A DNA stretch of 64,000 bases from Chrysomallon squamiferum. Taxonomy: Eukaryota > Animalia > Mollusca. Shown here in pieces: positions 34,533 through 60,589 of this stretch; the stretch's first letter is position 1; each line of letters opens with the position of its first letter. The position numbers were made by a program, and so were the translations under genes. The DNA is taken from contig CM022678.1 in assembly GCA_012295275.1 (NCBI GenBank), positions 10,540,001-10,604,000 on the forward strand. Direction: 5' to 3'. The notes under the pieces were generated by a model. It worked only from the letters and a program-made list of their open reading frames with translations, searched no databases and had not been told where the DNA came from.

Positions 34533-34564
34533 CGTGACGTCACGAATACGCTGCGGCCATTTTG
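34533..34564 (+). promoter_or_regulatory. PRL/PTP4A distal promoter: palindromic CRE plus YY1 site
   Basis: CGTGACGTCACG at 34533-34544 and GCGGCCATTTTG at 34553-34564 lie in a local CpG-rich patch, followed by a strong donor CTG|GTGAGT at 34658/34659. Confidence 0.65.
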
Positions 34565-34640
34565 ACCCGACAGACAACATCCTTGTCAGGTTTCCAGTCC
34601 TCTCGCTCACAGGGCGAGTTCTTATAATCGGTTACAATCA

Positions 34641-34658
34641 ATGTGCAGAATCATACTG
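34641..34658 (+). CDS. Inferred first coding segment (MCRIIL) of the spliced PRL uORF, in distal first exon
   Basis: ATG TGC AGA ATC ATA CTG |GTGAGT is phase 0. Joined to the acceptor at 58811/58812 it reads in frame into FFGELGHTFMEF. Confidence 0.55.
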
Positions 34659-36001
34659 GTGAGTAGAAAATAGATAAAATCTTATGTAATTTGTTACAAT
34701 TTTATATTAGATCGATCTCATCTATTTTGAAAAGATATTGGTGAACTAATTCACACCATACGTTGAAATCACGTGAATCAGTGAATGAATCGGTGAATGT
34801 CAAACGCTGGATAACTTGCCGTGGATAAGCCGGCACGGAATATCCATATGTTTTATTATTTGGAAAAAGAATTGTGATATTATATTTACACTTTGTTATT
34901 ATTTAGACGGGTAAGCCATTAGTAAGAACTTTTTTTCTGGATTGTTCTAATCTGAGGATTAAAATTACGTGAATGTTCTAAGTTGCGTCATGAGCCGAAG
35001 AATTTGTCTATAGCACTTGCTGGTAAAATTAATTCCATTCTAAAATATATTTTAAGCAATCATGTGTAATAGTAAATTCCATTAACTAAAACAATTACAA
35101 TTGTTTACATTATATATATATATATATGTAAATAAAATAGATTATTTTCGTTTGTTTATTTGTTATATTCAAATAATATTCTCAGTTATTTACGCATTTT
35201 GAGATAGTCGTAATGATAACCTGCACTTAATTTACAGTTAATTTTAGACATGTCTTATTTAAGTAACAAGTAATAGTTAAATAACAGTTAGATATCACAT
35301 ATTATTTCTAATTACAACAGTTATTTATCATAGTTGAGTGATAATGATGAGTGTGTCAAGATTTGCCCTAGCCTATTACTAACTGGCACTTCAGAGTCCG
35401 TTACTAACAATAAGTTAATGAATTTGTCCAGCAGACTAATGTTGATGTCATAGAGTAATTCAAATTAGTACATAGTTGTTTTTTTTTTTTTTTTTTTTTA
35501 TTTATTTTTATTATTATTATTATTATTTTTTTTTTTTTTTTTGTACAAATTTTGGCAACAATTCCTATCAGACTGATTTTTTAAAATTTATTATTATTAT
35601 TAGCATTTTTTTTTTTTTTTTTTTTTTAAGTCATTTTGTTGAGGGTTACTTGTTAGATGTGCTCACCAAGGTTTGATAAGATCAAACCTCTTTTTATATT
35701 TACTATTTCTATAATGATACAGTTTCTTGCTGTTCTTTTCCTTTCCACAAGAGTATATTATCTGATATGAAGGCATCAGGTTGCATCTGGGCTTCCTTAA
35801 AAAGTTGAGATCTTATAACTAAGTATCATTTGAGAACTTCAGTATTGATTATCTAAAGGAAATTTTAAACTGTATTTGGCATGTGTTTACATTACTAAAA
35901 TAACCTCTATCAAATGTATCTAAATGTTGTGTTTGATACTGGTCTACTAAAAATTGTACTGTTTGAATTAATCACTTTCACAAGTTTTTCTAGTGTTTAA
36001 T

Positions 36002-36072
<71 letters not shown>

Positions 36073-36984
36073 ATCATTAAATATAAATCCTCAATTAATT
36101 TTGTATTAATTCACACAGTGTTCAATGGTTGTTATTATGAAAGTATTTTCAATCTTCTCTTTTCTTCATAAGAATCACAGTACGAACAGGTCATTATGTA
36201 TAAAACAATTTGCCCTTGCTTTTGAGTTTAAAGACACCTGCAATATGTCAGTAGGACTGCCACTGAACACGTGGAACTGATATCTGTTTACAAGTATTTA
36301 TCTTGTTTGTTTGTGGCATTTTCAAAAGAATGTAAAAATGGACGTGGGCGTTACATCATATGTCTTCTGTCTGACCTTTTGAAAGGTATAATCATTACTG
36401 GTTTGGAGAACATTTTAAATTACACGTAAATACCACCAAGTAGTTTACCTGTATGGTGTAAAACAGCTTTTTTTTTTTTTTTTTTTTTATTCCTTCCTGT
36501 CACCTTGACATAAAGTAGAAATGAGTTGTTTATTACAAGCAGGTACATACTGATGGTTATGGAATGCTTTCTTGTTACCCTGTTGCTCTTTTGAGCAAGG
36601 GTGTTGTGTTGGCTCTGTGTTATCTTGTTTACGTGTGATTTGTTCACATTTACAACCAAAGAGAAAGGAATGCAGTTATAAACTGTAATGGCAGTGCTGT
36701 ACCATGGATGTAATGCAGTAATGCATTTGGTAGCAGTTGTTAGGTATGTTTTATTGCTGAAATTTTTCTGAACATTATTTCTTTTGTTATTATTCAGAAA
36801 TTGTTTAATTGTTTAGTATTAACACACACACACACAGTAATAAGAAAGAAATAAAAATAAAAATTCACCTCTTATACAGCTGTTAGCTGTACTTTCAAAA
36901 GAGTATTTAGGTTAAATAGACAGTGAATGTCAATTTAACAAAGACATTCTTTTAAAAATGAGTCAGCAGTGCCATAATTAATGT

Positions 36985-37285
36985 TTGTTACAACAGATAA
37001 TCATTGTCATTGTCATTAATGTTTGTCAAAAGTTACTTTCATTATTAATTTCAAACAAATTTACACTGTCATTATTAATATCCCATTAAAACAGAAAGTA
37101 ATTGTCTTTATTAATACTCGTCAAATTAGTTACATATTTTCATTATTAATGTCAGTAAAAACACATTTACGTTGTCACAACGTCTGTTAAAAAAGATACC
37201 TGTTGTCATTATTAATGTTTGTTAAAACAGATATTCACTGTCGTTATCAAACTACATTCATTTTCATAATAAATGTCTCTAAAAC
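36985..37285. repeat. Degenerate ~30-35 bp tandem repeat (tgtcattattaatgt..)
   Basis: Recurrent tcattattaat/tgtca cores. Confidence 0.6.
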
Positions 37286-37505
37286 AGACATTCAGTGTCA
37301 AAAGTATATATGTAATTTGACATTGAATCTTGTCCTTGCAGTATATATGTAACCTTAATTTCGTGGCATGTCCTAGACATGTACAACAGACTCATTGTAC
37401 ACCTGAAGCAAAGTGAAAATTTGCGGAATGCCACCCATGTGTAATTTGAGACCCTGTTTGATGTCGTGGGAAACATATTTATGCTTTTGTCATTTGCACA
37501 GAAAT

Positions 37506-37543
<38 letters not shown>

Positions 37544-38392
37544 TCATTCTTTAGAAACCATGCAGTATGTTTATACCTGTTTTCCTAAATGTGAGGTAAA
37601 GATATGATACAAATATTTATAGTAATGCATTTTAAAATAACACTGACATATATCTACAGGTATGGCTTTATTTATTTATTTTTTTTTTTTTTTTTTTTTT
37701 TTACAACAGTGATATTGAAATTTATTAATGTGACAAAACAACTATTTATATTTCAAGTATTACAGGGTGAGGTTGGTTTTAATAGTGAACAACCGAAAAG
37801 TAATTGAACAGAAATTTGTTATTCGACTTACTTTCACACTTTTGATATGTGAAATTCCATTCATTATTTTTCACAGCTTCAAGCTGATTTGTTTTCATTC
37901 ATCAATTCTTCAGATGTAAGGTTGTAGATATTTGTGCTTGAAGCAGGCTAGCATAGAACACTATTTTTTAAACCACTCCTCAGCTTTCTGAATGACAGGA
38001 GCCTCAGGAATATAATAATACTTGACAGACATTTTTTTTGGCTCTTCTAATATTTATACTAGACATGGTATTTTTGTCGTTTTTAATCAGGACCTAAAGC
38101 TGTGCTGTAATGTTAGTGAAGGTTATAAATTTATTTAGCTTTTTAATTAATATTTTGCTGTAATATGAAACAGTTTATTCATAGCAGTTGTTACTAATAC
38201 CAGTAATACATTCTGAGCCCAAAAATAAATACATTTAATAAAGCTGTTCTGTTTAAAGAAGCTTGTTCTTTCTTTATTGCTGTATCATGTAATAAGTTTT
38301 AAATTAAATTTAATTTTTATAGCCTATTCATTGCAGGATGTATGGTTCAGCAGTTTGCATATCACATTGCCTATCGCGTTGCGTCTCTGATT

Positions 38393-38435
<43 letters not shown>

Positions 38436-41400
38436 TATTGTGGTAGCTACAAACAATTTTTCTTTTAAGGTTAAAGTTTATATTTAGTTTTCTGTCAGAT
38501 ATATATTGTAACTGGTTGTGTTTCATATATATATATAGTTAATCTAAGAACTGTCTTTAGATTGATGACTTAATATTACCTGGACTGCAAATATGGTAAC
38601 AAAAGGTATTGTTTTGTTTTGTTGTTTCTTTGTAAAAAATGTGTAATAAATTGTACTAGTAGTTTGTTAAATGGCTCTGGAAAGAAATTCAAATTGCAAT
38701 TTTAAAAAATAACGAACAGTTTTCTTTTGAAAATTAATGGGGCATAATTAGCAAAAAAATTAAGACAAAGTTTCAAATTCTAATCCAGTGTTTCCTGAAT
38801 CCATTGTGTTTACCAGGAATATTAACTGGGGTTTCTAGATTAAAAAGAATTGTACTCACCCAGTTGTAATAAAGATTGCTGTTCGAAAGAACAGTATACA
38901 AAAAATAAAAATCTTCAGAAAAAAATAAAAAATAATAATAATAATCTACCATCACTGAATTGCAGATAGTGTTATTAATTATGACAAACAGAAAACTGAC
39001 ATGCTTATCCACAACAATCCATTTTTTATTATGTATAGTTTGACATGATCTGTTGGACAAAATAACAAATAAAAGCTTAGATGTAGAATGTGCAGATGTT
39101 ATTTCATAACAAGCTGACAGCACTGATTTTTACAAAAGCAGTGATCTGACTGACACCTGGATCTGTGTTTTTGTAAACATTGATTGTAAAACACTTTAAA
39201 AAATCGGGAAGTTTTAGCAGAAAAATCAGGAAGTTTGTATAAAAAATAGCAACAGGTTTTATGTAACGTTCATAACTGTTTTCATACATTTTTTTTTTTT
39301 TTTTTTGTCTTGCAGCAATTTCCAACCATTTTTAATAAATAGCTGAAAAGATTTTAAGACTGAGAAATGAAATATCACAATTGATAAATATTTATTTATT
39401 TATTTATTACTGCTTTTAAAAATAAATACGAAATATTAGAAATTGTAGAATAGATGCACTTATTATGTTTGCAAATCTGGTTCATAAAATAAATTATTTT
39501 GACAATGTATTATAGCTATGAATGAAATTGATCTGTGCCACATTAAGAATGTTATGTAAACATTTTCACAACAGCTGTAAATTTAAAAAAAAAAAAAATC
39601 ATTGAACACAAAAAAGAAAACAAAAAAAACAAAAGATTAAAAAAAAATGAAACAAAAAAACAATAGAAAATAGAAAAATAAAGAACAAACAGATAATAAT
39701 AAATAAATATATAAATAAACAACCACAAAGCTTCGTAGGAATGACAAAAAGTGTAAGAAATCTGTTGTTTACCCATCCAAAACAAACATGTTTACGTAAA
39801 CATGCATAAGTGTTAGTAACGTATACCATAACTTCCTTGTAAACATTTCTCTGAATGTTACTACTTGGGATAAAAAAAACATTTGATTCTTCTTCCTCTG
39901 TGACAAATTGTTTGTCAGAAAGAGCACAGATTTTGTTGAATGGTTCTGAGTTATTTCTTTCTGTTCAGGTATTTTTTAATGTAATTAACTTTAGAAAAAA
40001 ACGTTAATCTGGTAATTGTTGTTACCATTACTAAACTCATTACTGTAATATTACAAATCACATTAATTATTTTTTTAACTAATATAACGTTATTATTATT
40101 TTTTTGTTCTTTCTTTTAATTTTGTTGCCTAAGTAACTTAATTTGCTTATAAAGCAGTAGAATTTAGTTTTTTTTTCCTTCCAATTATTAGTCCTGTGGT
40201 TGCCATGCCAATATGATCATGAAAGATTTCAAGTACCATTATAGCATTAATAAAATAACTAAAAGTTTCAAGAATTTCTTCTTCTTCTCTTTTTTCTTTA
40301 TTTTTTTACATTAAATTATTATTATTATTATTATTTTAATATGATTGATAAGCCATTTTAGATAGGCTATTTATTTAAAATAGTTTTTCTAAGATATAAA
40401 ATCATAAATGGTATTCATACTGATATTCAGAACATTTTTAGATTTTAGCTATTGCACTGGTCTTTGAAAAACCCCATAAATGAACAAAAATGATAAAACT
40501 CAAAACAGAATGTGTTAATATTTGTTTTTAGAAATAATTTGTATATCCAGAAAGAAAGATGTCTTTAAAGGAAAGCCTAAACAAAACAAAAAAAAATTGA
40601 TCTGTTTCACTGTTGTAATTACCTCACAATGATCTATAGCAGTGAAGAAAATAATTAACATGTTTATTTCACACAATATGTTTCCTAAAGGGAGGTCACT
40701 AACTCCAATCTTCCTCAGTGTCCCTTTAGGACATCACTTGATCATTCTTCATGAACATTTTAGACATAAACACCATGTTACTTAGATGAAGTATCTAATA
40801 ACCACTCAAAAGAAATCTGTATAAAATTGTCAGTAAACATTCTTAAATTTCCTATATTCCTTTCATCTTTAATTAGTTTATGTAATATAATTATCAGATA
40901 ATTTCAGGGCTTATTATGCTACTGGGTGGAGTGAATTATCTGCAGAAAATAGAAAAATGTTGAAGCAGCTGAATAATTAAAACTCCGTTGTCTAGACATT
41001 GTCTTTTGGTAGGGTGAGATAACACAGCAAGTTTTCTTAATGTTATTAAACTGCCAAGATTATTATGGTAGCAGGGTGATTGTATAAGTATAGATGTCTG
41101 TGTCCACTGATAAGTAATCTGGATTCATAGGATACATATTCAGAGAAAAATGATGACAAAAAAAAAGAAAAACAAAAAGAAGAAATTAAGAAAGTGTAAA
41201 TCAGAAATACATGGTCTGAGGAAATTTGGTAAATGTGGAATTGTGCTCAAGTTAAAAATCGATTGAATTATAAAAAAAAGTTGATGTTTTTTCTTCTTTT
41301 TCTAATTCTTCTTCTTCCTTCCCTGAACGTACTTTAAGTATTATTTTCTTTTTTCTTTCTTTTTTAAATATAAATTATCACCCTCACACAGACAAACACA

Positions 41401-44206
41401 AAAGAAATTAAGAAAGTGTAAATCAGAAATACATGGTTACTATTTTTACATATAAAAATCTTTGATGTACACACACCTTCTGGGATAGTTTATTCATTAT
41501 TACCATTATTTTATAAATCTTCAGTAAAATCAGTGCTCTTTGTAAGACTGTGATCCTTTGAACCCTGTTATATCACTACATAAACCAAGAAAAAAATATT
41601 GAGCCAGTATTTTAATATTTATTTAACATTCCAAGAATAGAAACATATATTAATAAGAAAATAATATGCATTTTACTTATTACTTCCTTTTCATTTTACT
41701 GAATAGTATGAGGAACATTAAACTTGCTGATCAGATGAAATTTTTATCTTCCTGGTGTATATATATATATATATTTTTTTTTTTTAGTGTATTTATTAGA
41801 TATTTTTGTTCACTGCAAAAGAATGCTTTTATTTTTTTCTTTTAAATTTTTTTTTTTTTTTTTTTTAATGGAAAATTAATAATATACATCCTGTTGTTCA
41901 GGTAAACAACTAGTTATAATGTAAAGTAAAGTGAATAGAATACTATTACCATATATGTATGTATATCAGTGACTGGGTTTCACGTGTGCTCTATAATTAG
42001 GTGTGAAAGGGGAATTTTTATAGAATTTTCCAGAAGTAATACGTACATCTCAGTATTCTAGTGAGAAGAAGGTATGGTATATTACCACAATTATAACAGA
42101 TTAACTCTTTAATAATATTATTATTATTATTATTAACTGACCACATATTATATCTATTATTAATTCCTGTTGTTTCTATGTTTCATGTGTTGTATTTACA
42201 CTGAGCTTAAGAAAGATTGAAGCTGGCAGATTTTATATGTATTAAAATAAGACATTATAAACCATGTTGGATTTAACTCATTTTCAAAATCTTTATTTTA
42301 TAAATAGTAAATAATTTCAGTAATTTATTAACAACAAATCATATGTGTGTTGCATTCTTACAACTTTTTATCATGAGTGCTACTGAACTTGTTTCTTTAA
42401 GTCTGACTATATATATCATAACAATCTTTTTTCTTTTCATAAGAGTATTTTAAAAGTTTATTATTATTATTATTAATGTTTATTTATTTATTTATTTATT
42501 TATTTATTTTAATGCTTTTCTTTTAATCATTTTTTTTATTTTTTTTATGCCACAAATTTTAAATGAATTTCTTTCTTAAAAATGAACCTGATAGATTGTT
42601 CATTATTTGTCCCAGAAGATTTCATTTAAAGAAATAGTTGACAAGGGCGTCATTTGCTTTTTAAGAAAACCACAAACAAAAACTTTGACTGTTTCATGAA
42701 CACAGACCTGCCTGACTAACACGACTCATTAAATATGTGACGACAGAGACCAACTGACCCACTACAAGTGACCCAGTGAATGCATACTGGTCAGTAGGTG
42801 TGACCACTAGACTTAAAATAGAGTTAATAGCCAGCTGGTGACAGGCAGACAGCCGATACAGAATTGGAGGGTGTGTACACTAACACTGTCTGCCTCGGTT
42901 CAGAGATAACTGGTAAATACCAGTTACACTTCATAACTGAATCTTTTGTTGTTGGTTTTTTTTTTATTATTATTATTTTTATTATTATTATTATTATTAT
43001 TACTACTATCATTATTATCATTAATATTATCATTATTATCATTAATATTATTACTATTATTTTGTTGTTTTTTCTTAACGATATGTTTGCGTTCTACTTG
43101 CTAAAAATCAAATCTTTTTTTGTTGTTTGCAAGTTGTTTGATAAAATTTTTTACTGTTATTATTTTTAAGAATATGTATTATGTTTGCATAGTATTTTTG
43201 AAAAAAATTTTTATTTTATATATATATATATTTTATGAAATATCAGTGACATTTTGTTCAAAGATTTAAGAATATTCAGTATTATTTATATACAAGGGTG
43301 TTTGAAAGAATCTTTTTCATTACTGTCAAAACTAACTGATAGAATACTATTAGTATTATTAGTTCTGCTTGACATCTTCAGAATCTTTTGTTGGTTTCTT
43401 TATTCACATATTTTATTTTTATTTTGTTTGTATATGTGCTGATAACTGTCTTGTAGTTATTTTACACTCTGATGCCACTTCATTATAGTTATCTACATAA
43501 TATATTGTAACAATTAATGTTGATGCATTACATCACTGCCATACTTCTGTTTGTTTTTAATCAACATGCACATTTTTGTTTATCACATGTAATTAATTAC
43601 TTTGCAATGCGACTGATGTTAATAAACAAACAGTGTTTATTTTTTTATTATAATTTTGCTTATGTAACATCATTTTTGTAGAAATGATCAGATGCTTATT
43701 TGCAAACAGCTAGGTGGTTAATTGTTTTCACATGACAGAATGGTTGTTTTCAGGAAAGGAATGTTCCCTATCTGTATGTTTTCTATTACATTTAGTGACT
43801 GAGAATAGTCTAGGATGAATTACACTTCTAACAGGTTGGTTAATCATGTTTGTGAGAAAGTAAAAGAGAAAAGAGAGATAAAGGCAGAGAATAAGAGAGC
43901 GAGAGAAAGAAAAAGAGAAAGAGCGAGAGAGAAGGAGAGAGAGATTATTATTTTTTATTCAGTTTGAATATTTTATGAATTTTGTTTATATTTTCTCATT
44001 TTTAAAATTTGTTTGTGTTGCTGTAAGTATTGAATTGTTAACATGAATGTTTATGATGTTTTATTGTATATAAAGTAAACTTTTTGTATTTACTATAGAT
44101 ATATGCATAATAAATAATATTAAATTTTTATATGTACATACATACATACATACAGTTTTAGTAAACTTTTGTGATTATTTCTAACATATTGGCATGTACA
44201 GTCATA

Positions 44207-44238
<32 letters not shown>

Positions 44239-47200
44239 GTGTGTGCTTTGTGTGCTTTGTGTGTGTGTGTGTGTGTGTGTGTGTGAACCACAAAAACACC
44301 ACTGAGTACTTTAACAATGACTTTTTAATATGGCTGAGATATGCTGTAGAGATAAAAATAACAAAAACAACAGTATTGGGGCAGATAGACCCGCCATCTG
44401 TTACGTCTTAAACCACTGGGAATTATCCGCTGGTATTTAGTAACCACTGATCCCATATGTGTATTGTTACACGTGTGTACACGTTTGTGTTCACATTTTG
44501 TGTGCAATACTGGAATGAATTTTAGGTAGGTGGCCAGAAATGTTCTAGACTTGCAGAAATACACGTTGAATCAAATAAGTGAGAATAAAAACAAACAAAC
44601 AAACCAAAAAATTAACAAATTACTTTTTTTTTATTTTATATTATAAATAAAGGCATGGATATGTGGAGAAAAATGGTGCAGAATGAAATATTATTGTTAG
44701 TGTTAATTGTAAACTTGAAGAATAATTGTTCTTGTTATTTAAAAAAAAATATATTTTTTGTTATTGGTAATATATTGAGTTCAGATGTTTCACCAGTTTA
44801 GAATATATTTATTATAGGTGGTCTTTTCTTTTTTCTTTTTTTTACATTTAATCATATACATGGTTTTAAACAAAGATACTGAAATTCACTACTTGTCATT
44901 ATCAGATTTCATTGTTACATGCTGGAAAGTATTTGCCAAATTTTAATCTGAAAAAAAAAAAAAAAAAAAAAAAAAGTTTGTTTAAAATCTTGCTAAATTT
45001 AATTAATTAGGTTTATTTTTAAATTATATGCTTCTTACTTTGATTAGTTTCAGTAATTGAAAGTGTATGTGTAAAAATAATTAGAAAAATAATAATAATA
45101 AAAGCAAAAACCTGACAAGAACAAAACAAAAACAAAAATACCACCAAAAGAACTAATGGAAGAAAGAAAAAGAAAAAAGCTTTCTTTGAGCCACTTAGAA
45201 GAACAGAAAACAAAATAAAAATAAATAATAAATTAGAAGAAAAACAAACAAAAAATCACTTTGTATTAAAAACACTGTCATTAATTCTATGGAATGCAAG
45301 TGCATGAAGATCATGACATACATAGACTAACCATTAACTATATATACATACACAGGACAGCTATTAGTTATTAGTTTAACAACACTAATTACAGCCCAGT
45401 GTATCATCATTGATATTCTTTAACAAGTGGAAGCAAAACACAATAGATTGATATTGATTGTACAGATTTTCTTACTCAGTTATATTCATTATTATGTTGG
45501 GATTTTGAGGATGGTGTAAAGTGCAATGTTTATGAGTAAAAGATAAATTTTTATTATATATATATATTTTTTGATATAAACATTTAACTGGTTGTTTGAT
45601 AAAGTAAATATGGTGATGGTCTAAAATACTCTTCATTTTATAGGTGGTGGTTTTATGCACAAGGTGTCTAAACATTTTAATTTTAAAAGAAGACGAAATG
45701 AAGGAAAACTGTTTTTATCTTGTAATAACAAATGCTGATCTATCCTGAATGATGTTGAAATTTGAACAGAACAGGTTGTTAAATGAGTTTTAAAATTTCT
45801 GTATCACAGGTGCATGGAACAAATTTATAATTTTCGTTAAAGACTGATGGCTGAGTATATGTTGATATACATTTCACAAGACAGATGGATTGTTAAATAA
45901 CAATTTTTATCATTTTTTTTTTTATTTATTTATTTATTTTTTTATTTATTTTTTTAATATATAAAACAGTTCTATATGACCTGAACATACAAGTAGTTAC
46001 AAAGACAGTTTTTATGTGAAAAAACAAAAAAAAACCTTGTGAAAGTCTGTGTGTTATTTACTTCCCGTGTGCTGATGGGTATTAGCTTGTCATGGAGAAC
46101 TCATCTTTTATAACACACATTGTGTGTTTGCAAACATTCTCTTAGTATGAGGATTGCTGCCAACAGCAGTATACTACTACTACCACCACCAGGCCTTCTC
46201 TCAGAATTCCTAGCCTGTGAATAATACATTCACAACCAAACTGTAAGTTCTTTTTTTTTATTATACTATATCTGCCAACAGTTAGGATTAGTCTGCACTT
46301 ATCTCCAACAGATCTGCAAATCCATTTCTTTATGATTGTTGTGTGTATTAATTTGTATTAACAATGTTTCCTTGGCTAATCCTGTTGGATCAGGAAATAA
46401 CTACCTAGATAAAGTTCCTGTCACCAGAACGGTAATCTGATAGACTTATTACCTGGTTTTCTTCCAGAATGAGAAGGTGACTTGAGGCCAGTAACCTTGG
46501 CTGTGAAAGGAAAAGACTTCGTTGTTTTTTTTTTTTGTTTTTTTTTTAAAGATAATTATTATTTTAGCTTATGTTACAGCATTAGGTCTTAGTTGTTGTT
46601 CTGTGCATGGTTGTAAATTTTATGCTGTTGCAGAATGTCTCTGTGCACATTTGAATGTTAATGAATATTTGAATACATTGTTATTTGATCATTTATTATG
46701 AAAGTAGTTTTTGTTTTGTTTATTATTTTATTATTATTGTAATTTTATATATAGACAGATAGGTAGTAAACATATATGCATATATACATACATACACACA
46801 CGTATAAATGTAATAAAAATAAAATTGTATTTTAAATTACTATAGGATGGATGTAACGTGTAGTACAGATGAGTTTTATTAGTAGTAGTGATTAGTTTTT
46901 CTAATAAGAAAAAAAATGAAATTATACTAATGAACATGGAATGGCAAAAAATGATGTGTTTTATGTGTCTGTGTGAGCCACATATTTTCAAATCATTATT
47001 ATATAATAATATAGATCCACAGTTGATTAACTGTTTCTTGTATTATTGTCTAAAATATTATGAATATAATTCTTTATTTACTGAAATAAGTAAAGCAGAT
47101 TTAAATTTTGTTACATCAGCCATTGTTCATCCTCACAATTTAATTTTAAACTGCTTATAGTCTTATCTATAGTACATAATCCTGGATGATGATGATGATA

Positions 47201-47512
47201 AATGCTTAATTTAAGTAACCATTAAGATTACGGAATACGAAATGAGAAAAGTATTACATTCATTTTAAAATAATTAAATCTTAATTCCTTTTCTCATTTG
47301 TTCTTTCTAAAAGTGAATGTGACCTTTTCTTCTCTTAATCCATTAAATGAAATGTTTCCTGTTCATCCATTTTGTGGAATAAACAAGTCCATTTGGAGAC
47401 ATTAGAGAAATTTTTCAATGAAACTCTCTATAAGGAAAGGCACATAATAAAAGACATGCTGCTGGCAGAAGAGAACGAAATTGACTTTTGTGGCTGCAGC
47501 CTTTTCCTTACT

Positions 47513-47579
<67 letters not shown>

Positions 47580-47850
47580 CTAGCCATGCTAACCTGATTT
47601 ATTAATATATTAAGTGGTTAATTATAAACCTTATATTTTTGTTGAAAGACGATACCTTTACCTGTATAGTTGAAACAGAATACAAGTCTGAAGAAATGAA
47701 TTACATTGTTGTAATTAAGTGGATATATCCAACACCTCGGTTATTCCAGTACTTTGTACTTAATTAGCAAAATTTACTTTTATATATATATATATTTTCT
47801 AATATAGTGGAACAGAATCCCCGATAACCAGATAATGTCAATTTATTTTG

Positions 47851-47890
<40 letters not shown>

Positions 47891-49392
47891 GAATACGTAT
47901 AGATTTTTTCTTTCTTTACATATGTAATAATATATTTATTATAAAGAGAAAACTATTTTTGAAAAAATTCTATAAATCATAACATTTAGATATATGATGA
48001 TATTGATTTCCCAGAGTAATACGAGCATTTTGTTCTGATTATGTGTTGTCATGGTTACGAGAATTGCCAACACCATTGATGTATATAAATGCTTTCATAA
48101 CATGTTCAGGTAAATTGCTTAAATTTCTGATTAGCAGGTTTGTAGCCGATACTTTTTTTTTCTCTATCATTCACATATCTTTTTTTTTTTTTCACAGCTT
48201 GTGATATATTTACTAAATATAGAACGTTATCCATTTTGTTGTTTTGCAGTGGTTTCATAGATAAATAATTTATTAGGGCAATAATGGAAAGGTACTGAAA
48301 GGTTCAAAGTAGTGTTAAAAAGGGAAAATTGGGTGTGGGTGTATATTATTGATAGGTTTGTAGTTGTTAACTGTATTTGTACGATTTGATTCATTTTATT
48401 CTGTATATTTATCTCGTACAGATGAATGAAAGACATTAGGCAATTCCGTTTCTATTGATTTGTCATTGGTTTGCAGAAATAAAAATGCAACTGTTTCTGC
48501 AAATGTCAGAATTGCTCTTTTCCTCAGAAGATTAAAATGTTCAAAAGAAATAATGACAGAGAAGAATAAAAAATGAAAAAGTGCTGTTGCTTAAATTTTC
48601 TATTAAATGAAGTGATTTAAGAAATTATTCTGACAGTTAACAACATTAAGATGTGCACTGCAATTCTTTATTAAAAAAGTGCATCAGATTTTTAAATCAT
48701 ATTGGCTGTATTCCACTATCTTTATAATTTATATATTTATTTATTTATTTTATAATTTATTATTATTGTTTTTATTATTATTATTAATAATAATAATAAT
48801 ATCATTATCATCATCATCATCATCATTATTATTAACATTATTACTAGTAACTATTACTTTTATTATTATTTATTTATTTATTCATTTATTTTTATTATTA
48901 TTTATTATTTTATTATTTGTTACTTAACTAATTGGGGTTATAACTATTTACTTCTGAAGTAGCACAATTTACGTGAATCGTGAACACACAGTCGTAAGTA
49001 TTTTTACCATTGCAGATACTTTGAGTATATGCTCTGTTATGGGATCACCTTGAAACTCTGATGAAACTTGAACATTATGAAACATTTTTTTATGCTGTTC
49101 TGATGCAACTGTAAATGTCTCTGAATAACTGAGTAATCTGATACAACTCTTTTGTCTTACCAGGTACTGCTGTCTGCTCTTTCATTGTAACCACCTGTAT
49201 CTATATCAAAAACCTTACAACAGTACCATTCAGCTATTTGTTTTATTATTGTTATTCCAATTACATTTTATAGATAATGTCCTTTTCTTCTTTCTTTTTT
49301 TTTAAATTTATTTATATATATTTTTTAATTTTGATATATTATTATTATTATTACTTTTTTATTTTATTTATACATATATTATAAATTTTAAA

Positions 49393-49423
<31 letters not shown>

Positions 49424-50131
49424 ATGGGTTGATTGTAACTAATTATCTGCGGTTCAGCATATTTTTTATTATTATTTTTTTTTAATTACCTGCTGATTTG
49501 TTAATGCAGAAAAGAACATTTTTCTTTTCTTATTTTTTATTTTATTTTATTATTATTATTATTTTTTTTTCATTTGTAATGATAGAGCTATATTGTTTTT
49601 CAAGAGTTCACTGATGTAAAAACAATTAATTTGTTAACAATTGAGCATGAATTTGATTAATGTCAAGAATGCCTCTATTAAAATGAAAATTACATTGAAA
49701 TCTAGTGACTGTTCTTGCAAAACTATAGTCAGTGTTTTGTCAGATGAAATAGATTGGATTTGAAAAAATAAAAATAAAAATAAAGAAAAGAAGAGGAATG
49801 GTTCTTTGACATCTCCCAAAATTGATGCTGACATCTCTATTATGCTTGCTGTATTTTTCACAGGCCTGGTTTAATTTGATATTTGTTTCACATTCGCTAC
49901 TATAATATTGTTACATTGTTTTAAACTAACCACACTCAACATACATTTTAGAATATTACCTATGGTTAATGTAGATTTCAAAAATAATTTTTATTATTAC
50001 TCTCTTTAAATCAGGTTTAATAATATGTTAGAAGGTAAAATAAACATTTGTATTATTTGTATGATTTGACCAAAGGAATGAATTTTTTTTTCTTCTTCTT
50101 CTTCTTATTATTATTATGTAGATATAAATTT

Positions 50132-50162
<31 letters not shown>

Positions 50163-53100
50163 ATTTTTTTGTGGAGACGTTTAAGGAACTTAAAATTACA
50201 GTTTGTTCCAACTTTTGAAACTTATTAAACTTTTTGAAGATAATATTATAAAATGATGTACAGTACAATCTATATTTATGAAGGATCATTCATCAATACA
50301 GGAAGAAAATGAGTTATATGAAATAAATAGCTTTTTTTTTTTTCTTTTTTTTTTTCTCTTAGCTGCAAGAGGTCTTTTATTATCCTTACAATAAACCCCA
50401 AAATCATTCATCTCTTGCTGGGAAGTTACATCTACTTTGATGAAAACAGATTTTTTTTATATTGTCCCTCTACTCCAAAAATTGAGTCTCAGCCTGTTCC
50501 ATGAAACCTGTGCTAAAGATGGGACTTGACAGCTTCATGTCTCACTGACACATTAAAAATTGTCAGTCCAGAAACTCTAAGGTCAGAACACTTAAGAAAT
50601 TTGATGAATTTAGCCTTGATCCCTCTCTAGACCATTTCCTCATCACACTTCTCTTTAGGTGACTGGTGAACTGAAACACAGGACTTCACTTTCAGATTAC
50701 ATCTGATGATCTTATGAGGATACTAATAACTGTTACCAATACAATTTCCTATGGGAGAAAAAAAAATTGCTTTCTGTTAAGCTTTTGTACTCTGCAATTT
50801 GGCAGGATTTTCTTGTAGAACTTAAACATAATAATTTTGTTTATATCTCGTAATTTTGGCAGTTTAAGATAGGTGGTCTGTGTTTTGAAAAATGATTATT
50901 AAATATCATTAATATGTAAATTAAAATTTTATTTATTTTTGGTGATGTTCGTGAGAGTGCCATTGGCAGCAAAGAACAAAAATAACTATAAAGATTTTTA
51001 ATAATATTACCATCATCCTTTTTTAAAAATTTATGTTTGTTATTGTCTTTCACTTCTTTTATTCTTGAAAACTACATTCCAATATTTTTGCAGTGGTAAA
51101 CATGCAGAAATTCCATAACTGCCTGTAATCATTCCTTCAGACATCAATTCTGAGCATTCCTGAATTTGATAGCCCATTCATGAATGCCATTTGTAAAACA
51201 CTCAATTGAGAAGGGCAGAGTATCTGTTCTATTTTTTTTTTTTCTCTTCCAATCAGCTTACTATCTAGTTGTTGTTACTGACCTGACCTGCATATTGAAT
51301 TCTGATAATGAAGATCCCAAGTACACATTTTTTTTTTTGCTGGAAAATGTCACCAAGGATTGATTTTGCGTTCTTCAATAATTTTTTTTTTTTTTTTTTT
51401 TAAATTTCTTTTTAATCTCATTTCATGAGTTATTATTATTGTTTTTTTTTTTTCTCTCTCTTGACAAAAGAATCTAAAATTCTAATTCTTTCTTTCACAG
51501 TTTTATCCTGCTATTTTTTTAAAATCTTTATTTAAAAATAAGATAATTTCGTCTCCACCTATCTCTTGAATATTTTCTTAGTGGGGAACTACAGTAATTC
51601 ATTGTATATTTGGTTTGATTCATTTTAGAATACTTCCATTATTAAGTGGGTTGTGAACTTTAGATGAACCTGTTATGTAATATAAAAAGTAAAATTAGAA
51701 GTAATAAAATATATAAAAAAATTTAAAATAAAATAAAGAAATACAGTTCCAAGAGAAGATTTATAAAAGGGCTTTACAAAAAAGAAACGATATTTAAAAA
51801 AAAAAAAAATTTAAAACCTGAATTGCATAACCATTTACAATAAAGTTTCTTTTTTATTTTATTTATTTTTTGTCTTTTTTCTTATTTTGTCTAGCAAAGT
51901 GTGTGATGTTTCATCGATTAAGTATGTCTGAATTCAATTAAAAATTTATTTTTTTGGACTGTTTTTTTTTTGGTTTTATTATATTTTTTACTTTAAATAT
52001 AAAAGTATCAGTTAATACTGTATTTACATTTAGAAAGCTTAATATTTCATTATATAAAAAATTTGTTTTATAACAATGGTGAAATTGGTGTAATGAATCT
52101 GCAAAGACATTTATTTGTTGGTTCCTTGTTTTATTTAAAAAAAATTTCTGCATATTAATCCTGGTTAAATAAAATCACATTAAAGCTGTCTTAAAGATTA
52201 CGTGACTTCTATTCACTTGAAAAAACATTTAACAGACACATTTTCCATGTAGCTTGAGTACTCACCATGCAAAAGTGAGTTAAATTAATCATAGTTTCCT
52301 AATTAATACTTTTGTTTTTTTGTTTGTTTTTAATCTGCCCTTTCTCCCACTTAACTTGCAAGCCATCCTGGCTTTTGCCCATCATATTTAAAAAAATAAT
52401 ATCAGCTCTTTTAGAAACTGTGTCAGTGTTCTCAAAGGATTATCTCTGGTGGAGAAACACATTTTTAAAAAAGGTATTGGCCTAAAAAACACTTGACAAC
52501 GAAGGGACCTTGAGTTTCCCAGTCCTCATTACTTGTCAAGTACCAACAAGATCTTTGTGAATGACTTTGTTCACTGAGTTTCTAACATTGACACTTTAGT
52601 TATCACCCTTCCTCTAGGTAAGCAGCTGAAAAAAAATACTTGTGCAGGTTAAGGTTAATTCATAGTTCATGTCAGATTCATTTTATAATTTGTATGTTAA
52701 TATCTGTTTTTTTTCAGGTATAGTTGTATATTTGTCTTTGTTTTTGTTTATTTAGCTACGTTAATTCTTATTTCATTATAAATTATTTTTTAAGATATGA
52801 CTGTGTGTATGTGTGTTATTTCATTTATTTATAGTAACATATATTTTATATTACCATAGGTTATTACATAATATTACATTATATTACATTCTATTAAATT
52901 ATAGGTTTTATTTGTTCTGATTTTATTATTTTAATTATAATTTGGCCTAAGTATATTAGCTTACAATAATTTAAAGCTCCATTCAATTTCCATTATAAAC
53001 AGGTATAAATTAACAATAAAGGTAATCTGTTGCTATTGGTAACTAATGATTTCTTACCAGTCAGTCTGAATAATTAATTTTAATCCGTGTAAATAGTAGA

Positions 53101-53187
53101 TCCAATAAACACACTAGGGCTTAAATATCCATTACTGGGTTTTTAAATAGTTTTTTAAAGATTTTGTAATTTTAAAAAAAAAAAAAA

Positions 53188-53225
<38 letters not shown>

Positions 53226-54116
53226 ATATTTTTATATTTACTTCTTCTTATACATATTTGAAACATGTATTACTTTTCCTTTTTTTTTTTTTATTATTTT
53301 TAGAATTTTTTTTCTGTTTGTTTGATGATAACATGCAGTTCACATTCATATCACAAGTTGCCCTCATGCTGTGCTATGCTGTGGGTCACGTGCGTCTTGG
53401 GGATTCTCTCATACCTTGATCTTTGTCTTGATCCAGTTGACATGCTTTCTTGCGACATGTCTGTTACCCATAGAGACACGTCTATCTTTATAAATCATTA
53501 AAAATATTTACCAGAACAGAAAATATTTTAGAAGTACTTTTTAAAAGTTTCTTCTCATGTAGCGTTTTTGTTGAATTTTACTCATAGAACAGAAAGGATT
53601 GTAGAAATAATTTTAAAGCTTTCATTTTAATATAGCGTTTTCTTGAAATCTATTTATATAGAATAGAACATAGAGTATTTTAAAGCTTTCTTTTATTTTT
53701 TATGGTATTTGTTGAAATTTATTTATATTAAAATAGGAGATGGTTTAGAAAAAAGTAAATTGCGGAAAAATAATATTAGAAAATAATCCAGAATAAGTTT
53801 TAATACTTTATTTTATAACTTGTTGAAAATTATTTGTTAAAACAGAAAATATTTATGAAAGTTTTATTAAATAACACTATTTAGAAATCATTTGAGAAAA
53901 AATCTTCTGTTGAATTATATTTAACAAAAGATATTTCTAGAATGGGGTTTAAAATTATATTTTTCTAAAAACAATATTTAGAAAGTATTCCACAAATGTT
54001 TTAAAACTTAGAATTAAAAATATTTCTGAAATGTGTTGTAAAGTTTTGTTGTGTAACCAGTTTAATTGTATAATGAAGTTAGCCCCAATTAACAATGTTC
54101 GGAATCCTCTGCTTGA

Positions 54117-54175
<59 letters not shown>

Positions 54176-54970
54176 TTTATTTTTATTTTTTCTCCTCTTT
54201 TTCTGTGAAAATAAAACAGAAATAACCTCCAGGCATTTTCACAAGTGTTATTCTGTCATACAGAAATGTCATTTTAGTACATGTCTTAAATGTGTGAATT
54301 TCCAAAAATACTCCTAGAAAGATTAAAAAAAATAAAATAATAATTATAATAATTATAATAATAATAAAGACAGTAATAAATAAATAAATGTAATAATAAT
54401 AAACTAAAAAAGAAATATGTATAACAACTGTAAGATTCATGTGTGTGTGTGTGTGTGTGTGTGTGTTTGTGTGTTTGTGTCTATAAAACAAAATTTAAAA
54501 TGTAATTCAAACTTAAAGAATATTATATGGGTAATTTTGCCATTTTATCATGTTCTGTTACTTGGCTGACATCAAATTGAAATTAGTTACAATCTCTTGT
54601 AATGAAAAGAGCTCAGTATTTTAGTTGTTAATATAACTAAATTTGTTATTTATTTATATCATTTTTTTTTTTTCATTAATAAACGTACCTTGTTACAGTT
54701 TCTGTAATTTATTTTAATGTTAATCTTCTTTTCAGAATTAATATACAGATAATATTGTGTCTGTGTGCGTGTGTGTGTGTGTGTAAACCACTGTTACAGA
54801 TGATCTATGGTGAAAGAAATGAATTTAAGATTGGGTTAACAAAGATTTTTGTCATTTATAGAGGGGTGTGTTGTAACAAATGTCATTCCTAAATTAATGA
54901 AGTGTCCTTGAAAGTATTTTCTTTCTTGAAGTAGAAGTGGACTCCATTTAATAGTAAAACAAAATTATAT

Positions 54971-55004
<34 letters not shown>

Positions 55005-55416
55005 AGTATCTATAAATATGTATATGTTAAGTCTGTTAGTACCAGATGTATTTTTAGAAATTAGCAGCATGTTGTACCAGTCAGTTTATGAATGCTCATG
55101 CTTTATTACACCTGTAGTTACCTGTGTGACGTGGGTGAATTGAATGTCGATTGCATACCTATAACAATGGATCAGCTTGTTTACTTCCCTGTAACAAACG
55201 ATAAACTTGTTTATTCTCCAGGTAGCGTGTCACGGCAGGTTAATCTAAGATCTTACCTGAAATATCTCTTACGTTGATTATTGTATCGTTTTGGTATTGT
55301 TTCGGTCATTTTGAAGAAATGTGTGTGACCATCCTTAATCAGTATATATTTAAAGCAGTGTATAAATTTTAAAATGTTTTCAATGTAATGTTAAATAAAA
55401 CTCTATGTGTGTGTTT

Positions 55417-55448
<32 letters not shown>

Positions 55449-55938
55449 CTTTAACCTTTTCCAAACATTCCTTCGATATGGTAGCCATTTTCAGATTTTA
55501 TTTTCAATGAATACATTTAATTTTTCTAAATAAAAGAAGATTAAATCATAAAACTTTATATATGAAACCATTAAGACGTTTTACTTGCTGGCAAAAGTTT
55601 TCTTCATTCTGGTATTTATTGTCGGATTTTCTTTTCAGATCAGTTTTCAGCAATTTAAATGAAGATTAGTATAAAACTTAAAAGTAAAGATTATAACATT
55701 TAAGCTGTTTACCAGATCAAGAATTTTCTTCATATACTATCATTAATTCTACAAATTTCAGTAAACGCAGATTACTTCACAAAAATAAATGAAGATTAGT
55801 CATAAATCTTCATAAACAAATTATACGGCTACTTTTCTTTTCCATTCTTTAACCTTCAAACTAAACGGCATGGATTTCTGAATCATTTTTATTACTGAGT
55901 CACTGTAATGTGTCAAGCATTATAATTCCACAAACTGA

Positions 55939-56016
55939 CAGTTGGTAGTCGAAGATTAATTTATGATGACAAAGCAGCTATATTTCCATTTCTATAAATA
56001 TCTTGATAACAACATC
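55939..56016 (+). repeat. 78-bp dispersed direct repeat, copy 1 (copy 2 at 57323-57400)
   Basis: cagttggtagtcgaagattaatttatgatgacaaagcagctatatttccatttctataaatatcttgataacaacatc; about 5 mismatches between copies. Confidence 0.85.
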
Positions 56017-56739
56017 AATCTAAGAAATCCAAGTGAGTGTGTCTGTGAAAAATAAGCATTGGTCAGTTTTAGAAATCAGATGACATTGATTTTTATGGGA
56101 CTAAATACTTTATAGGCATTAAAATAGAAATTAAAAAAAAAAAAAACAGTTAATGCAGATTTTTGGTTTATTGTTGTTAATTTTATATACAATTAACAAG
56201 GAGAGTAATTAAAAATGAGTAAAGAAGAAAAATTCAGATATTCTATGACTTTATAATTTTATGTTCTGATTAAAAATACATCAGTTTACAAGTAAAGATG
56301 ACATATGACTGGCTACTTGGTTTTAATCTGGGTTTTTTTATTTGATTTCTATTTGATCCTAGGAATTTAAATGTATTTCTGCTGATATCTTGTATAGAAA
56401 TTTTAAGCATGTATTCTAATTATATACAGTACTGCAGCTTTTTCTGTCAGCTGTTAATATATTAATACAGTGATGTCTTTGGTTAGCTAATTTTAATCTG
56501 TTACTGATATATAATTACAATTCTTACCCAGGAACTCGCACATATTTGTACTGATATATTGATTTGAATGAAATATATGTCTAATTATAGTCATTTACTA
56601 ACAAGCCATAAATAACTAGTATTACAAATATCTCATAGTTTATATGAGTTACAATAATATAAAAAAAAATCTGATGTGTACAATCGGTATTACTGACATG
56701 TGTACACACACACACACAATCAATCACTGACTCATTGAT

Positions 56740-57137
56740 CCTTCCCCGACCACCCGTAAAAAACGCACACACTGTCCTCTGCTGTTATTAACACAGGCCA
56801 CGTTTTTCACGAAACAATTTCACGTGAGTTGGGCAACGTGATTACGACACTGGTAAGCAATTTGTACAGGGTGTGCCGTGAACCGGCTAGCAGATTAGTC
56901 CCGTCACCAGTGATTTCTTTAATTAAGGACAACAGTTACTCAACAGGCAGTCAGACTTGGTACATGCATGCATGCCAACTGGATAGACAGTCGACTTCTT
57001 TTGTTAGTGGCAAAGCAGGGCTTTTACACACGAGGCTTGTTCCTACCATTCTGACATCGCGTAAGGTGACCAGTTCGTTTCTGTTCGTTCGTCTTGAAAA
57101 GAAAGTTGGTTACAGCAGCTGGTTGTGGCTCATGTCA
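56740..57137 (+). promoter_or_regulatory. Candidate proximal alternative promoter and first exon of PRL/PTP4A
   Basis: GC/CpG-enriched island in an AT-rich intron. E-boxes CACGTT (~56799) and TCACGTGA (56820-56827). Ends at ATG TCA|GTAAGT (57137/57138). Confidence 0.5.
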
Positions 57138-57322
57138 GTAAGTGGAAGTTCTCTGTAATGCGTATAATTGTAATACTTGATAATGTGGATTGAATGTAAA
57201 GATGTCCATGTCTTTACAAACAAGATCTGTAGCATAGTAATAATCATGTGATAATTATATATAATTGTATACTTGGTATGTGAAATGTCTGTATCGTTAT
57301 AAATGAGATCTGGATCATGTGG

Positions 57323-57400
57323 CAGTTGGTAGTTGAAGATTAATTTATGACGATAAAGCAGCTATATTTCCATTTCTACAAATATCTTGATAATAACATC
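57323..57400 (+). repeat. 78-bp dispersed direct repeat, copy 2
   Basis: Matches 55939-56016. Confidence 0.85.
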
Positions 57401-57673
57401 TTAAACATCATTATATATACATATATAGATATATAGAGATATCGATATATACACAAAAAACTATACTTAAAATGTAAATTGATTGTAAAGATGTGTATAT
57501 ATATATATATATACTTGTATATGAGATCTTTAGCAATATAATAATGTTTTACTTGGTAAAGCAGATAAAATGTGCATTTCATAGTAGCACATAAAAACAC
57601 AAATATATATATATACACATACATACCATACATTAACACAACACATACAGTACATGCAGAAATTAAATGTAAC

Positions 57674-57717
<44 letters not shown>

Positions 57718-57788
57718 CACAGCAACTGCAGTACACATGAAATACATACAAAATTCATACTTAACACACACACATATCTACATCAGTG

Positions 57789-58292
57789 AAGTATTTACTT
57801 TGATGATACCTGCAGTGGTTTAAGTATATATTTAGCCTCTCTACTGCTAAGGTTCTTATCACTATTGATCATCAGATGTTTTAATATTTTATGAAAGGAT
57901 TAGATTATATTCTGGCACTGCACTGTACTATATACCAAGAATTTAGATACATATATAAGTATTTACTTTGATGATACCTGCAGTGGTTTAAGTATATATT
58001 TAGCCTCTCTACTGCTAAGGTTCTTATCACTATTGATCATCAGATGTTTTAATATTTTATGAAAGGATTAGATTATATTCTGGCACTGCACTGTACTATA
58101 TACCAAGAATTTAGATACATATATAAGTATTTACTTTGATGATACCTGCAGTGGTTTAAGTATATATTTAGCCTCTCTACTGCTAAGGTTCTTATCGCTA
58201 TTGATCATCAGATGTTTTAATATTTTATGAAAGGATTAGATTATATTCTGGCACTGCACTGTACTATATACCAAGAATTTAGATACATATAT
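57789..58292. repeat. 3 x 168-bp near-identical tandem repeat
   Basis: Units start at 57789, 57957 and 58125. I noticed only one substitution (tcactatt vs tcgctatt). Confidence 0.93.
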
Positions 58293-58811
58293 ATATATAT
58301 CAAAAAATTAAAATCATGATTGATGAAGTATTCTGTACAAATATTCAACAAGTTGGTTGGTTACTTTTTTATTTCTAATTAATAATTAATTACTATAAAT
58401 GTTGTAATTAACTTCTTCCTCTTTTTTTTTTAATTATTGTAACTGTTTGGTCACTATTAATTTTATTACTTTATTTTTTTTTGTTTTTTTAATATTTCAG
58501 ATTTTTGGTGAACAATCTAATTTATAGTTTTAGTTTGGTCACTAATATTATAATCTCATTTTTGTTTTTAATTTGGTCACTATTAATATAATGTAATTTT
58601 TATTTTTATTTTTATTATGATTTTTTGTTGTTGTTTTTTTCAGATTTTTTAGGGTATGTTTAGTACTATTAATATTATAAATATAATTTTTATTTTTAAT
58701 ATTATCATTTTTTCAGATTTTTGTGGGGTATGTCTATAATTTTTACTTTTAACATTATAATTTAATTTCTGTAATTTAAAATTTGTTATGTTTTTTTGTT
58801 TTTTTTTTCAG

Positions 58812-58889
58812 TTTTTTGGTGAACTTGGTCACACCTTTATGGAGTTTGTCACCAACTCTGGAGACTACTGCCAGGCTCAACACGTGTAG
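58812..58889 (+). CDS. Conserved-peptide uORF of PRL/PTP4A (FFGELGHTF-MEFVTNSGDYCQAQHV*), putative Mg2+-sensing regulatory peptide; internal ATG at 58839
   Basis: The frame is open from the exon start at 58812 to TAG at 58887-58889, ~600 nt upstream of the PRL ATG. It carries a GDYCQAQH motif like the one I recall from vertebrate PTP4A1/2 uORFs (needs alignment to confirm). Confidence 0.8.
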   Translation, partial: FFGELGHTFMEFVTNSGDYCQAQHV

Positions 58890-59490
58890 AGTGTCGTCTG
58901 CGTTTGCTGCGACACGTCGGTTTGTCCAATGGGTGCTTTGCTAGATGTTCTTCATTTAATTACAAGTCAGCTGACCTGGAGGTTGCCAGCCACCAGCTCT
59001 CAAGTGTTTTGAATGGGTTAAAATACCTCATTACCCCCCCCTGGACAACTCATCACCAGTGTCTTTCTGTTTGTTATTGTTGTCTTTTTATTTAATTTAT
59101 TATTATTATTTGTTTTATTTATACCTTTTTGTTATTCATTTTCTTATATATCTATCTATATATATATATATTTTTTTTTTTTTTTCCCCAATTTTGAAAT
59201 TTGAATTTTTTTAATTTTTTTTTTGTTTTTTTTTGTTTGGATGTTCATTGGAAAGGAGGTTCTTCGGATTACTGTTGTGATTGTAGAATTTTCTATAGCA
59301 GAAATAAAAAAAGAAAGAAAAAGAAATTAAACAAAACAAAACAAAACAAAACAACAGCAATACTTTTTTTATATACATATATTTTTTTTTTTTGAAAAAA
59401 AGAGATTTAAAAAGAAATTTGTTAAACAACTGCAATAACTGAAGTGTTGGTCCTAGGTATATTGTTTCTTGTGTGTGTGGATTACATACA

Positions 59491-59704
59491 ATGTCAGTAA
59501 CAACAATGAAGGCTAGACGCCCAGAACCGTCGGAAATTCAGTTTAAGAATATGCGTTTCTTAATTACTGATCGTCCATCAGATTCCACAATGGAAAAATT
59601 TATTCAGGTTCGGTTCAGTTTTTCTTTACACTTGTTAATGTTAAAAATAGTAGATTTGAGCTGTATGAATTTCTTCAGTTTGTTAAAATAATGATGTTAT
59701 CATA

Positions 59705-59743
<39 letters not shown>

Positions 59744-60242: not shown

Positions 60243-60273
<31 letters not shown>

Positions 60274-60377
60274 ATCTTTTACAGGAATTGCACAAGCGAG
60301 GCACAAAGGATGTAGTGAGAGTGTGTGAACCCACCTACAACACAGAAAAACTGCAGAGTGAAGGAATCCGAGTGTTG
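59491..60377 (+). CDS. PTP4A1: Protein tyrosine phosphatase type IVA (PRL-1/PTP4A), first two coding exons; 3'-partial
   Basis: Exon 59491-59607 encodes MSVTTMKARRPEPSEIQFKNMRFLITDRPSDSTMEKFIQ. Exon 60285-60377 encodes ELHKRGTKDVVRVCEPTYNTEKLQSEGIRVL. Both are hallmark PRL motifs (MRFLIT.RP, VVRVCEPTY). No WPD-loop or CX5R exons were found before 64000. It is likely the single invertebrate PRL co-orthologous to PTP4A1-3. Confidence 0.93.
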
Positions 60378-60589
60378 GTAAGTGAGAATTTTTTTTTTTT
60401 CATTTTGCTCCTATCAGTAATTATTACACAGGAATTAGGGTATTGACCAGTAATTATAACTGTTAATGGCAGCATCAGTTTCATGGTTGATGTGAGAGCA
60501 GTTAAGATTCTGTGGTAAAAGTGCATGGGGGTTGAGAGATGATGGTAAGATTGGATCTTGCTTAATGCTGGATCTTTGACCATGGTGAT

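Follow-up and report, generated by a model that had tools for sequence, protein, structure and literature searches.

A probable molluscan orthologue of the human PTP4A1 conserved-peptide uORF in the PRL leader of Chrysomallon squamiferum

The leader of human PTP4A1 contains an open reading frame upstream of the main one (a uORF) that represses in a sequence-dependent manner, such that a frameshift in it raises reporter output (PMC7530721). The human and mouse PTP4A1 uORF peptides, 44 aa long (NM_003463_1), are given in supplement file 2 of PMC1402274, and the vertebrate element is known from human to fish (PMC3914846). Low Mg2+ raises mammalian PRL-1/2 synthesis via the uORF (PMC11855589, PMC10083557, PMC9276622), a sensitivity that is abolished by scrambling the uORF (Hardy 2019, as reported in the review PMC11855589) and that requires AMPK/mTORC2 (PMC11855589); the same review proposes stalling and AMPK/mTORC2, without a molecular sensor. 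Binding of PRL to CNNM extends to Drosophila (PMC10040874). An upstream AUG in the TRPM7 leader, in U(-3)/G(+4) context, sees greater use when Mg2+ is high (PMC4227784).

We analyzed a stretch of 64,000 nt from Chrysomallon squamiferum (CM022678.1), here called the window, in whose coordinates all positions are given. A preliminary description of this DNA had read a conserved-peptide uORF at the start of a PRL leader exon, and translation of the frame gave the same 25 residues and stop that had been reported. The frame and the coding exons downstream of it are as follows:

58812..58889, + strand: 3′ portion of the uORF (25 codons, then TAG), with a 24-residue conserved core ending in SGDYCQAQH
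58839..58841, + strand: internal in-frame AUG with T at -3 and G at +4, opening a short form of 16 codons (16 aa)
59491..59607, + strand: first coding exon of PRL/PTP4A, 39 codons, its AUG with A at -3; PDB matches are PRL-1/2/3
60285..60377, + strand: second coding exon of PRL/PTP4A, 31 codons; the best PDB match is 8ct8_C, a chain named PRL-1 phosphatase

Directly 5′ of the frame lies an AG acceptor (58810-11) that closes a long pyrimidine tract. The frame is not a chance occurrence, since a tblastn search of the whole window with the human-type peptide P0088 (the protein named LOC128125822 / A0A3F2YNX1) matched at the uORF with an E value of 2e-12. The window core is identical to the human one at 19 of 24 positions and stands in the same place before a PRL gene, which supports the orthology proposed earlier; judged by its sequence, it is almost certainly the orthologue of the human PTP4A1 conserved-peptide uORF. 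The vertebrate peptide cited in making that proposal agrees with the human and mouse rows of supplement file 2 of PMC1402274. The further claim of a coding composition within AT-rich surroundings held for the contrast itself, with 51% GC in 58839-58889 compared with 16.5% in the upstream intron and 18% in 59061-59430, but not for its boundaries, as GC remains at 48.5% to 59060, which carries the GC-rich island past the end of the frame.

The intron 5′ of the frame contains roughly 3.5 head-to-tail copies of a unit of about 165 nt (57784-58280). Nearer the frame, between 58486 and 58760 (+), the acceptor and exon start recur three times in degenerate form (AG ends at 58500, 58643, and 58716), each time running into a stop. 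These copies have the look of tandem duplicates in decay, and they could serve as decoy or alternative 3′ splice sites.

In a PDB search with an E limit of 1, the first PRL coding exon matched 21 sequences, the best at 2.9e-7, and the second matched 22, the best at 9.1e-6; Pfam yielded no family for either of these two short exons. The uORF lies upstream of the PRL coding sequence, apart from it and on the same strand, with 601 nt and four more AUGs between its stop and the PRL AUG at 59491. The donor after the first coding exon (59608, GTTCGG) looks weak, and the remaining PRL exons were not found between 60377 and the window end. The second exon is identical to a Pomacea model at 22 of 31 positions and to an Acanthosepion model at 24 of 30, compared with 16-18 of 31 for shark- and mammal-type models. 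Elsewhere in the window, exons of a TDP2 gene occupy 27380-29032 (-) (exon 27383-27682, PDB E 3.7e-22), oriented away from the predicted first PRL exon described below, so that a promoter region common to both genes is possible near 33.3-34.6 kb; an intronless rhodopsin-family GPCR (PF00001, E 1.8e-11) lies at 19939-21144 (-).

The window core is identical at 24 of 24 positions to Mizuhopecten OWF55764.1, one of the five candidates from a word-index search with the window frame, and at 22-23 of 24 to Pomacea, Elysia, Argonauta, and Acanthosepion; together with the closer resemblance of the second PRL exon to mollusc models, this makes the earlier inference of a lophotrochozoan-type genome a fair one. 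In the Pomacea and Acanthosepion models the peptide is fused to the phosphatase domain, which ties the peptide to PRL. With a 14-sequence profile, 77 of 1.84 billion proteins matched at E up to 0.001. A wider profile matched 58 of the 7994 longer candidates that were scored and, among 380 short candidates, 122; CQAQH was exact in 186 of the 204 proteins collected. The identified vertebrate matches run from lamprey to mammals. Six matches are from insects (Gryllus, Laodelphax, Anthophora, Callosobruchus, Anopheles, and Ctenocephalides), all of them protein records without genomic context, and the five of these that were compared share 12-15 of the 24 core residues with the window. No match was identified from Drosophila, nematodes, echinoderms, or cnidarians in libraries made up only of frames that a gene caller had called. 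If the window uORF works as the same brake as the human one, which is likely, this control of PRL translation would date back to the ancestor that molluscs and vertebrates share.

A metagenome scan with a degenerate eight-residue pattern returned 38 loci. A PRL exon lies downstream in 22 of these, so that peptide-level conservation in related PRL leaders, on which the preliminary description had staked its reading, was indeed found; in four of them (L011, L024, L033, and L035), which are spliced, the uORF, its stop, and PRL are all on one contig. In three more loci the homologous frame is present, but the flank is too short or gave no PRL match. The other 13 (L001-5, L009, L016, L018, L020, L023, L028, L031, and L038), which show neither further likeness nor PRL, were rejected as chance matches.

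For a codon test we compared the window with 10 of 12 full-type loci, leaving aside L013 (a duplicate of L006), L011 (incomplete), and the 13 split-type loci described below. Over the 16 codons free of the search pattern, pN/pS was 0.26 for the window against the 10 loci and 0.18 over all pairs, compared with 0.85-1.50, with stops present, in shifted frames; these values are uncorrected, near saturation, and taken from related pairs. The in-frame values lie below the Ka/Ks < 0.5 cut-off for selection used in PMC7530721. Among the 16 codons, third positions varied in 14, first positions in 6, and second positions in 5, and the codon for Ser16 is TCT in the window and AGY in all other loci. The dN/dS-type comparison that had been proposed for this frame thus returned purifying selection on residues: selection acts on the peptide residues, not on the bases. 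All 11 full-type DNA loci keep the internal Met, as do 75 of the 86 cores that are distinct at the protein level; among those 86, the residue after His takes 11 values.

Conservation was not confined to the part of the uORF that follows the internal Met. The 16-aa form is probably not the whole uORF, as conservation spans the nine residues 5′ of that Met and then a six-codon upstream exon. The likely start of the uORF is at 34641, with six codons ahead of a 24-kb intron, which would make the whole 31 codons long. The predicted upstream features are:

34535..34640, + strand: CpG-rich island, predicted to hold the edge of the promoter and the 5′ portion of the first PRL exon
34641..34658, + strand: predicted first six uORF codons (MCRIIL), the AUG with T at -3 and at +4 (weak), followed by a phase-0 GTGAGT donor
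34659..58811, + strand: predicted phase-0 intron within the uORF, 24,153 nt, with GT...AG ends

When candidate N-termini were scored against six homologous N-termini, ATG 34641 ranked first among the 54 candidates upstream of the acceptor that consist of an AUG, five codons, and a GT (score 13.2; next 4.8), and also first among the 1708 AUG hexapeptides on both strands of the window. Only two of the 54 candidates have a GTRAG donor, ATG 34641 being one. Genomic homologous loci, including vertebrate-type ones, have an AG acceptor before the same codon, and in the spliced contig L024 the six codons in front read Met-Cys-Lys-His-Ile-Leu, with similar N-termini in records from scallop, snail, and cuttlefish and in two further records. 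A Met-x-x-x-Ile N-terminus with the same acceptor phase was found in human, L024, scallop, snail, and cuttlefish, and the TCA preceding AUG 34641 is common to L024 and to the internal Met of the human row. The CpG-rich island holds the palindrome TGACGTCA at 34535-34542 (+), and GCCATTTT is found at 34556-34563 (+) and again in L024, where it precedes the uORF AUG near the 5′ end of the contig; the two are putatively CRE-like and YY1-like, respectively.

RNA data bear on the leader exon as a whole. In four RNA runs from one study, we detected 41-45% of the words of 58700-60450, an unplaced share that cannot resolve the 78 nt of the frame. The share expected from the coding exons alone is 9%, from the whole leader exon 48%, and from a leader starting after the uORF 44%. 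Given 41-45% against 9%, the long PRL leader exon is therefore transcribed, and the share fits either a leader with the uORF or one starting after it.

A CpG-rich patch at 56760-56860 (+) contains several CACGT-type hexamers and, at 56853, a GTAAGC donor in uORF phase 0, without an in-frame AUG; it is a possible alternative first exon, which would leave the 16-aa form only. Contigs L035 and L033 have differing 5′ ends ahead of the same core. In scallop and cephalopod models (P0006, P0046, and P0114), an in-frame exon of 27-35 residues stands between the uORF parts, the two cephalopod inserts being alike; tblastn found no counterpart of this extra exon in the window.

The 13 split-type loci form one clade (three are identical) and have a TGA at exon codon 9, followed by a frame of 14-16 codons. 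SGDYCQAQH is the sole match in this second frame, with eight of its nine residues fixed by the search pattern. The internal Met comes after the stop and starts its own frame in 11 of the 13. Three loci (L008, L010, and L036) retain the six-codon first exon and its GT donor; this exon was not found within the available flank of the other eight split-clade loci examined. Across loci, the uORF stop falls 1 to 14 codons past the His. These results bear on the earlier suggestion that the short tail of the window peptide marks a minimal core: the vertebrate tail does appear dispensable, since a short tail after QH is common to cephalopods and insects, but the natural minimum is found in the split clade, with 14-16 aa and SGDYCQAQH only.

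A second, much smaller frame follows the peptide uORF:

59013..59021, + strand: Met-Gly-TAA mini-uORF, 123 nt past the peptide uORF stop, with U at -3 and G at +4

Of 10 other full-type loci that are non-redundant, 8 have such a mini-uORF 104-197 nt past the stop, the vertebrate-type L006 and L029 among them; its frequency by chance, estimated by shuffling, is 0.002-0.013 per locus. The base at -3 is a pyrimidine in 9 of 9 cases, and the third base of the Gly codon is variable among loci. The mini-uORF is absent from L015 and L022 (two of the 10 full-type loci) and from the split clade, which has AUG-stop-AUG in place of the Met-Gly frame. A conserved hairpin over it was considered and rejected, as only two of nine folds (the window and L024) form one and the other loci fold differently. 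Immediately upstream, a 27-codon uORF at 58929-59012 (+) ends in a TGA that abuts the mini-uORF AUG; no conserved counterpart of its peptide was seen in the other loci. In the spliced contig L011 (1-80), PRL starts only some 25 nt after the uORF stop, compared with 1113 nt in the related L033, and L011 is possibly an isoform with the spacer and mini-uORF spliced out.

Taken as a whole, the scheme that we moderately favor is one in which the uORF, with a predicted 31 codons, acts in cis as a brake on PRL through its nascent peptide, with Mg2+ predicted to set the braking; for cis repression of PRL by the peptide, taken by itself, we have high confidence. Scanning subunits would meet three conserved weak-context AUGs, namely the uORF start, the internal Met, and the Met-Gly-stop frame. 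By extension from the human counterpart, ribosomes translating the uORF would be held near its SGDYCQAQH end and would block those that follow. Arrest is predicted during elongation, at or beside the His codon and not at the stop, since the conserved stretch closes with His, the residue behind it is free, and the stop comes at variable distances thereafter. At low Mg2+, if the analogy with TRPM7 holds, the weak AUGs would be skipped more and the roadblock loaded less, and more subunits would arrive at the PRL AUG, directly or via reinitiation after the two-codon frame; the additional PRL would, as the literature describes, bind CNNM transporters and restore Mg2+. Given U(-3)/G(+4) at both the internal AUG and the mini-uORF AUG, and an even weaker context at the first AUG, we predict that Mg2+ acts largely on roadblock loading, although the context of the internal AUG at -3 and +4 is confounded with the flanking Phe and Glu codons. 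Sensing of Mg2+ may be indirect, since the mammalian response needs AMPK/mTORC2. A broader possibility, which we put forward tentatively and consider doubtful, is that bilaterian PRL leaders share one modular Mg2+ sensor predating the mollusc-vertebrate split, in which weak AUGs would sense, SGDYCQAQH elongation arrest would amplify, and the Met-Gly-stop frame would serve as a reinitiation gate. If this is true, the split clade, with its uORF cut at the internal Met and its first exon and nine-residue motif kept, would prove the parts separable.

Other explanations of the same conservation differ in what they take the frame to do. The peptide could be a cis brake with no Mg2+ response or only an indirect one, serving as a gate for energy state or stress in general (AMPK/mTORC2, eIF2 phosphorylation). 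The AMPK/mTORC2 dependence in mammals (PMC11855589) is consistent with this, as is the resistance of PTP4A1 mRNA and its leader to eIF2 repression (PMC4383229), and sequence proves no Mg2+ input; yet in 22 loci the uORF precedes a regulator of Mg2+ transport, and its conserved start contexts are of the TRPM7 kind, which is Mg2+-sensitive in vitro (PMC4227784), so we consider a gate of this sort unlikely. That the product might be mainly a free, trans-acting microprotein, with PRL repression a side effect, seems very unlikely to us. The 44-aa product is entered as a protein in RefSeq/UniProt for many vertebrates (human LOC128125822) and its N-terminal six residues are partly conserved too, but both ends are free in length, the split clade breaks the frame by a stop and keeps nine residues only, the human frameshift relieves repression in cis (PMC7530721), and three versions of the uORF tested against Pfam belong to no family.

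Two further readings would deny the frame its role as a uORF. A GT just after the His codon (58884) could be spliced in frame to the exon at 60285, which is in phase 0, making the frame an alternative N-terminal coding exon of PRL, and peptide-phosphatase fusions of this kind occur in models from Pomacea (P0109), Acanthosepion (P0114), and some vertebrates. These models are automatic predictions, however, the fusion loses the conserved first PRL exon, and in all four spliced contigs examined (L011, L024, L033, and L035) the peptide ends at a stop and PRL has a start of its own; we regard such an exon as extremely improbable. Conservation of an RNA structure, riboswitch, or protein-binding site, with an incidental frame, would accommodate the GC-rich island, which reaches 170 nt beyond the stop, and the local hairpins that the window and L024 sequences allow across the mini-uORF. 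It is, in our estimation, just as improbable: synonymous sites are near saturation where residues are kept, Rfam gave no match at E up to 1 over 58300-59700, and the predicted folds around the mini-uORF differ among nine loci.

We found no literature report of invertebrate copies, of the two-exon layout, or of the mini-uORF, the range figure and table of PMC7530721 lying outside the material covered. The list in that article, in which PTP4A1 is the first of 17 and a Eutheria-only case the last, hints that a wide taxonomic range may already be printed there. A full-text search for the motif CQAQH returned unrelated papers only, nine of the 16 supplementary files of PMC4568590 (one of them in part) are without CQAQH or GHTFMEF, and PRL is absent from the main text of PMC2276209, on dipteran uORFs. 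The invertebrate copies amount to natural mutants that narrow the Mg2+ readout: SGDYCQAQH appears indispensable, the tail and the stop position are free, and the internal Met is able to stand alone, with weak start contexts and a two-codon frame kept alongside. If their link to PRL holds, the insect-like copies could bring the problem within reach of genetics. There is also a recurring annotation error, in which the uORF is fused to the phosphatase or called a hypothetical protein; public models fusing the peptide to the PRL protein (P0109, P0114, P0067, P0116, P0117, and P0120) are probably prediction errors.

The fungal arginine attenuator peptide and AMD1 MAGDIS are metabolite-responsive arrest-peptide uORFs, and the PRL uORF resembles them in being a short conserved leader peptide proposed to stall the ribosome; no sequence likeness is claimed. 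It differs in the freedom of its stop position, a point against arrest at termination. TRPM7 uORF2 (PMC4227784) offers a likeness of another kind, with a U(-3)/G(+4) upstream AUG in the leader of a Mg2+-homeostasis gene and leaky scanning proposed at low Mg2+, but the TRPM7 uORF peptides are not conserved, whereas the window peptide is under purifying selection, and the two have no sequence relation. Closest by far is the human and mouse PTP4A1 uORF, which agrees with the window in its position in a PRL leader, the 19 of 24 core residues, the invariant SGDYCQAQH end, and the internal Met, in an intron that, in vertebrate-type loci, is placed ahead of the same Phe codon, in the TCA before the N-terminal Met, and in the Met-Gly-stop frame behind the uORF (in the vertebrate-type L006 and L029). 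The window uORF differs in its predicted length of 31 aa compared with 44 in human, in having no 7-residue N-terminal extension, in the single residue after His compared with six, and in VTN replacing LKG; its spacer is 601 nt. The evidence as a whole gives good support to the view that the window uORF is a further member of the known PTP4A/PRL regulatory element, whose function here would be that of its mammalian relatives.
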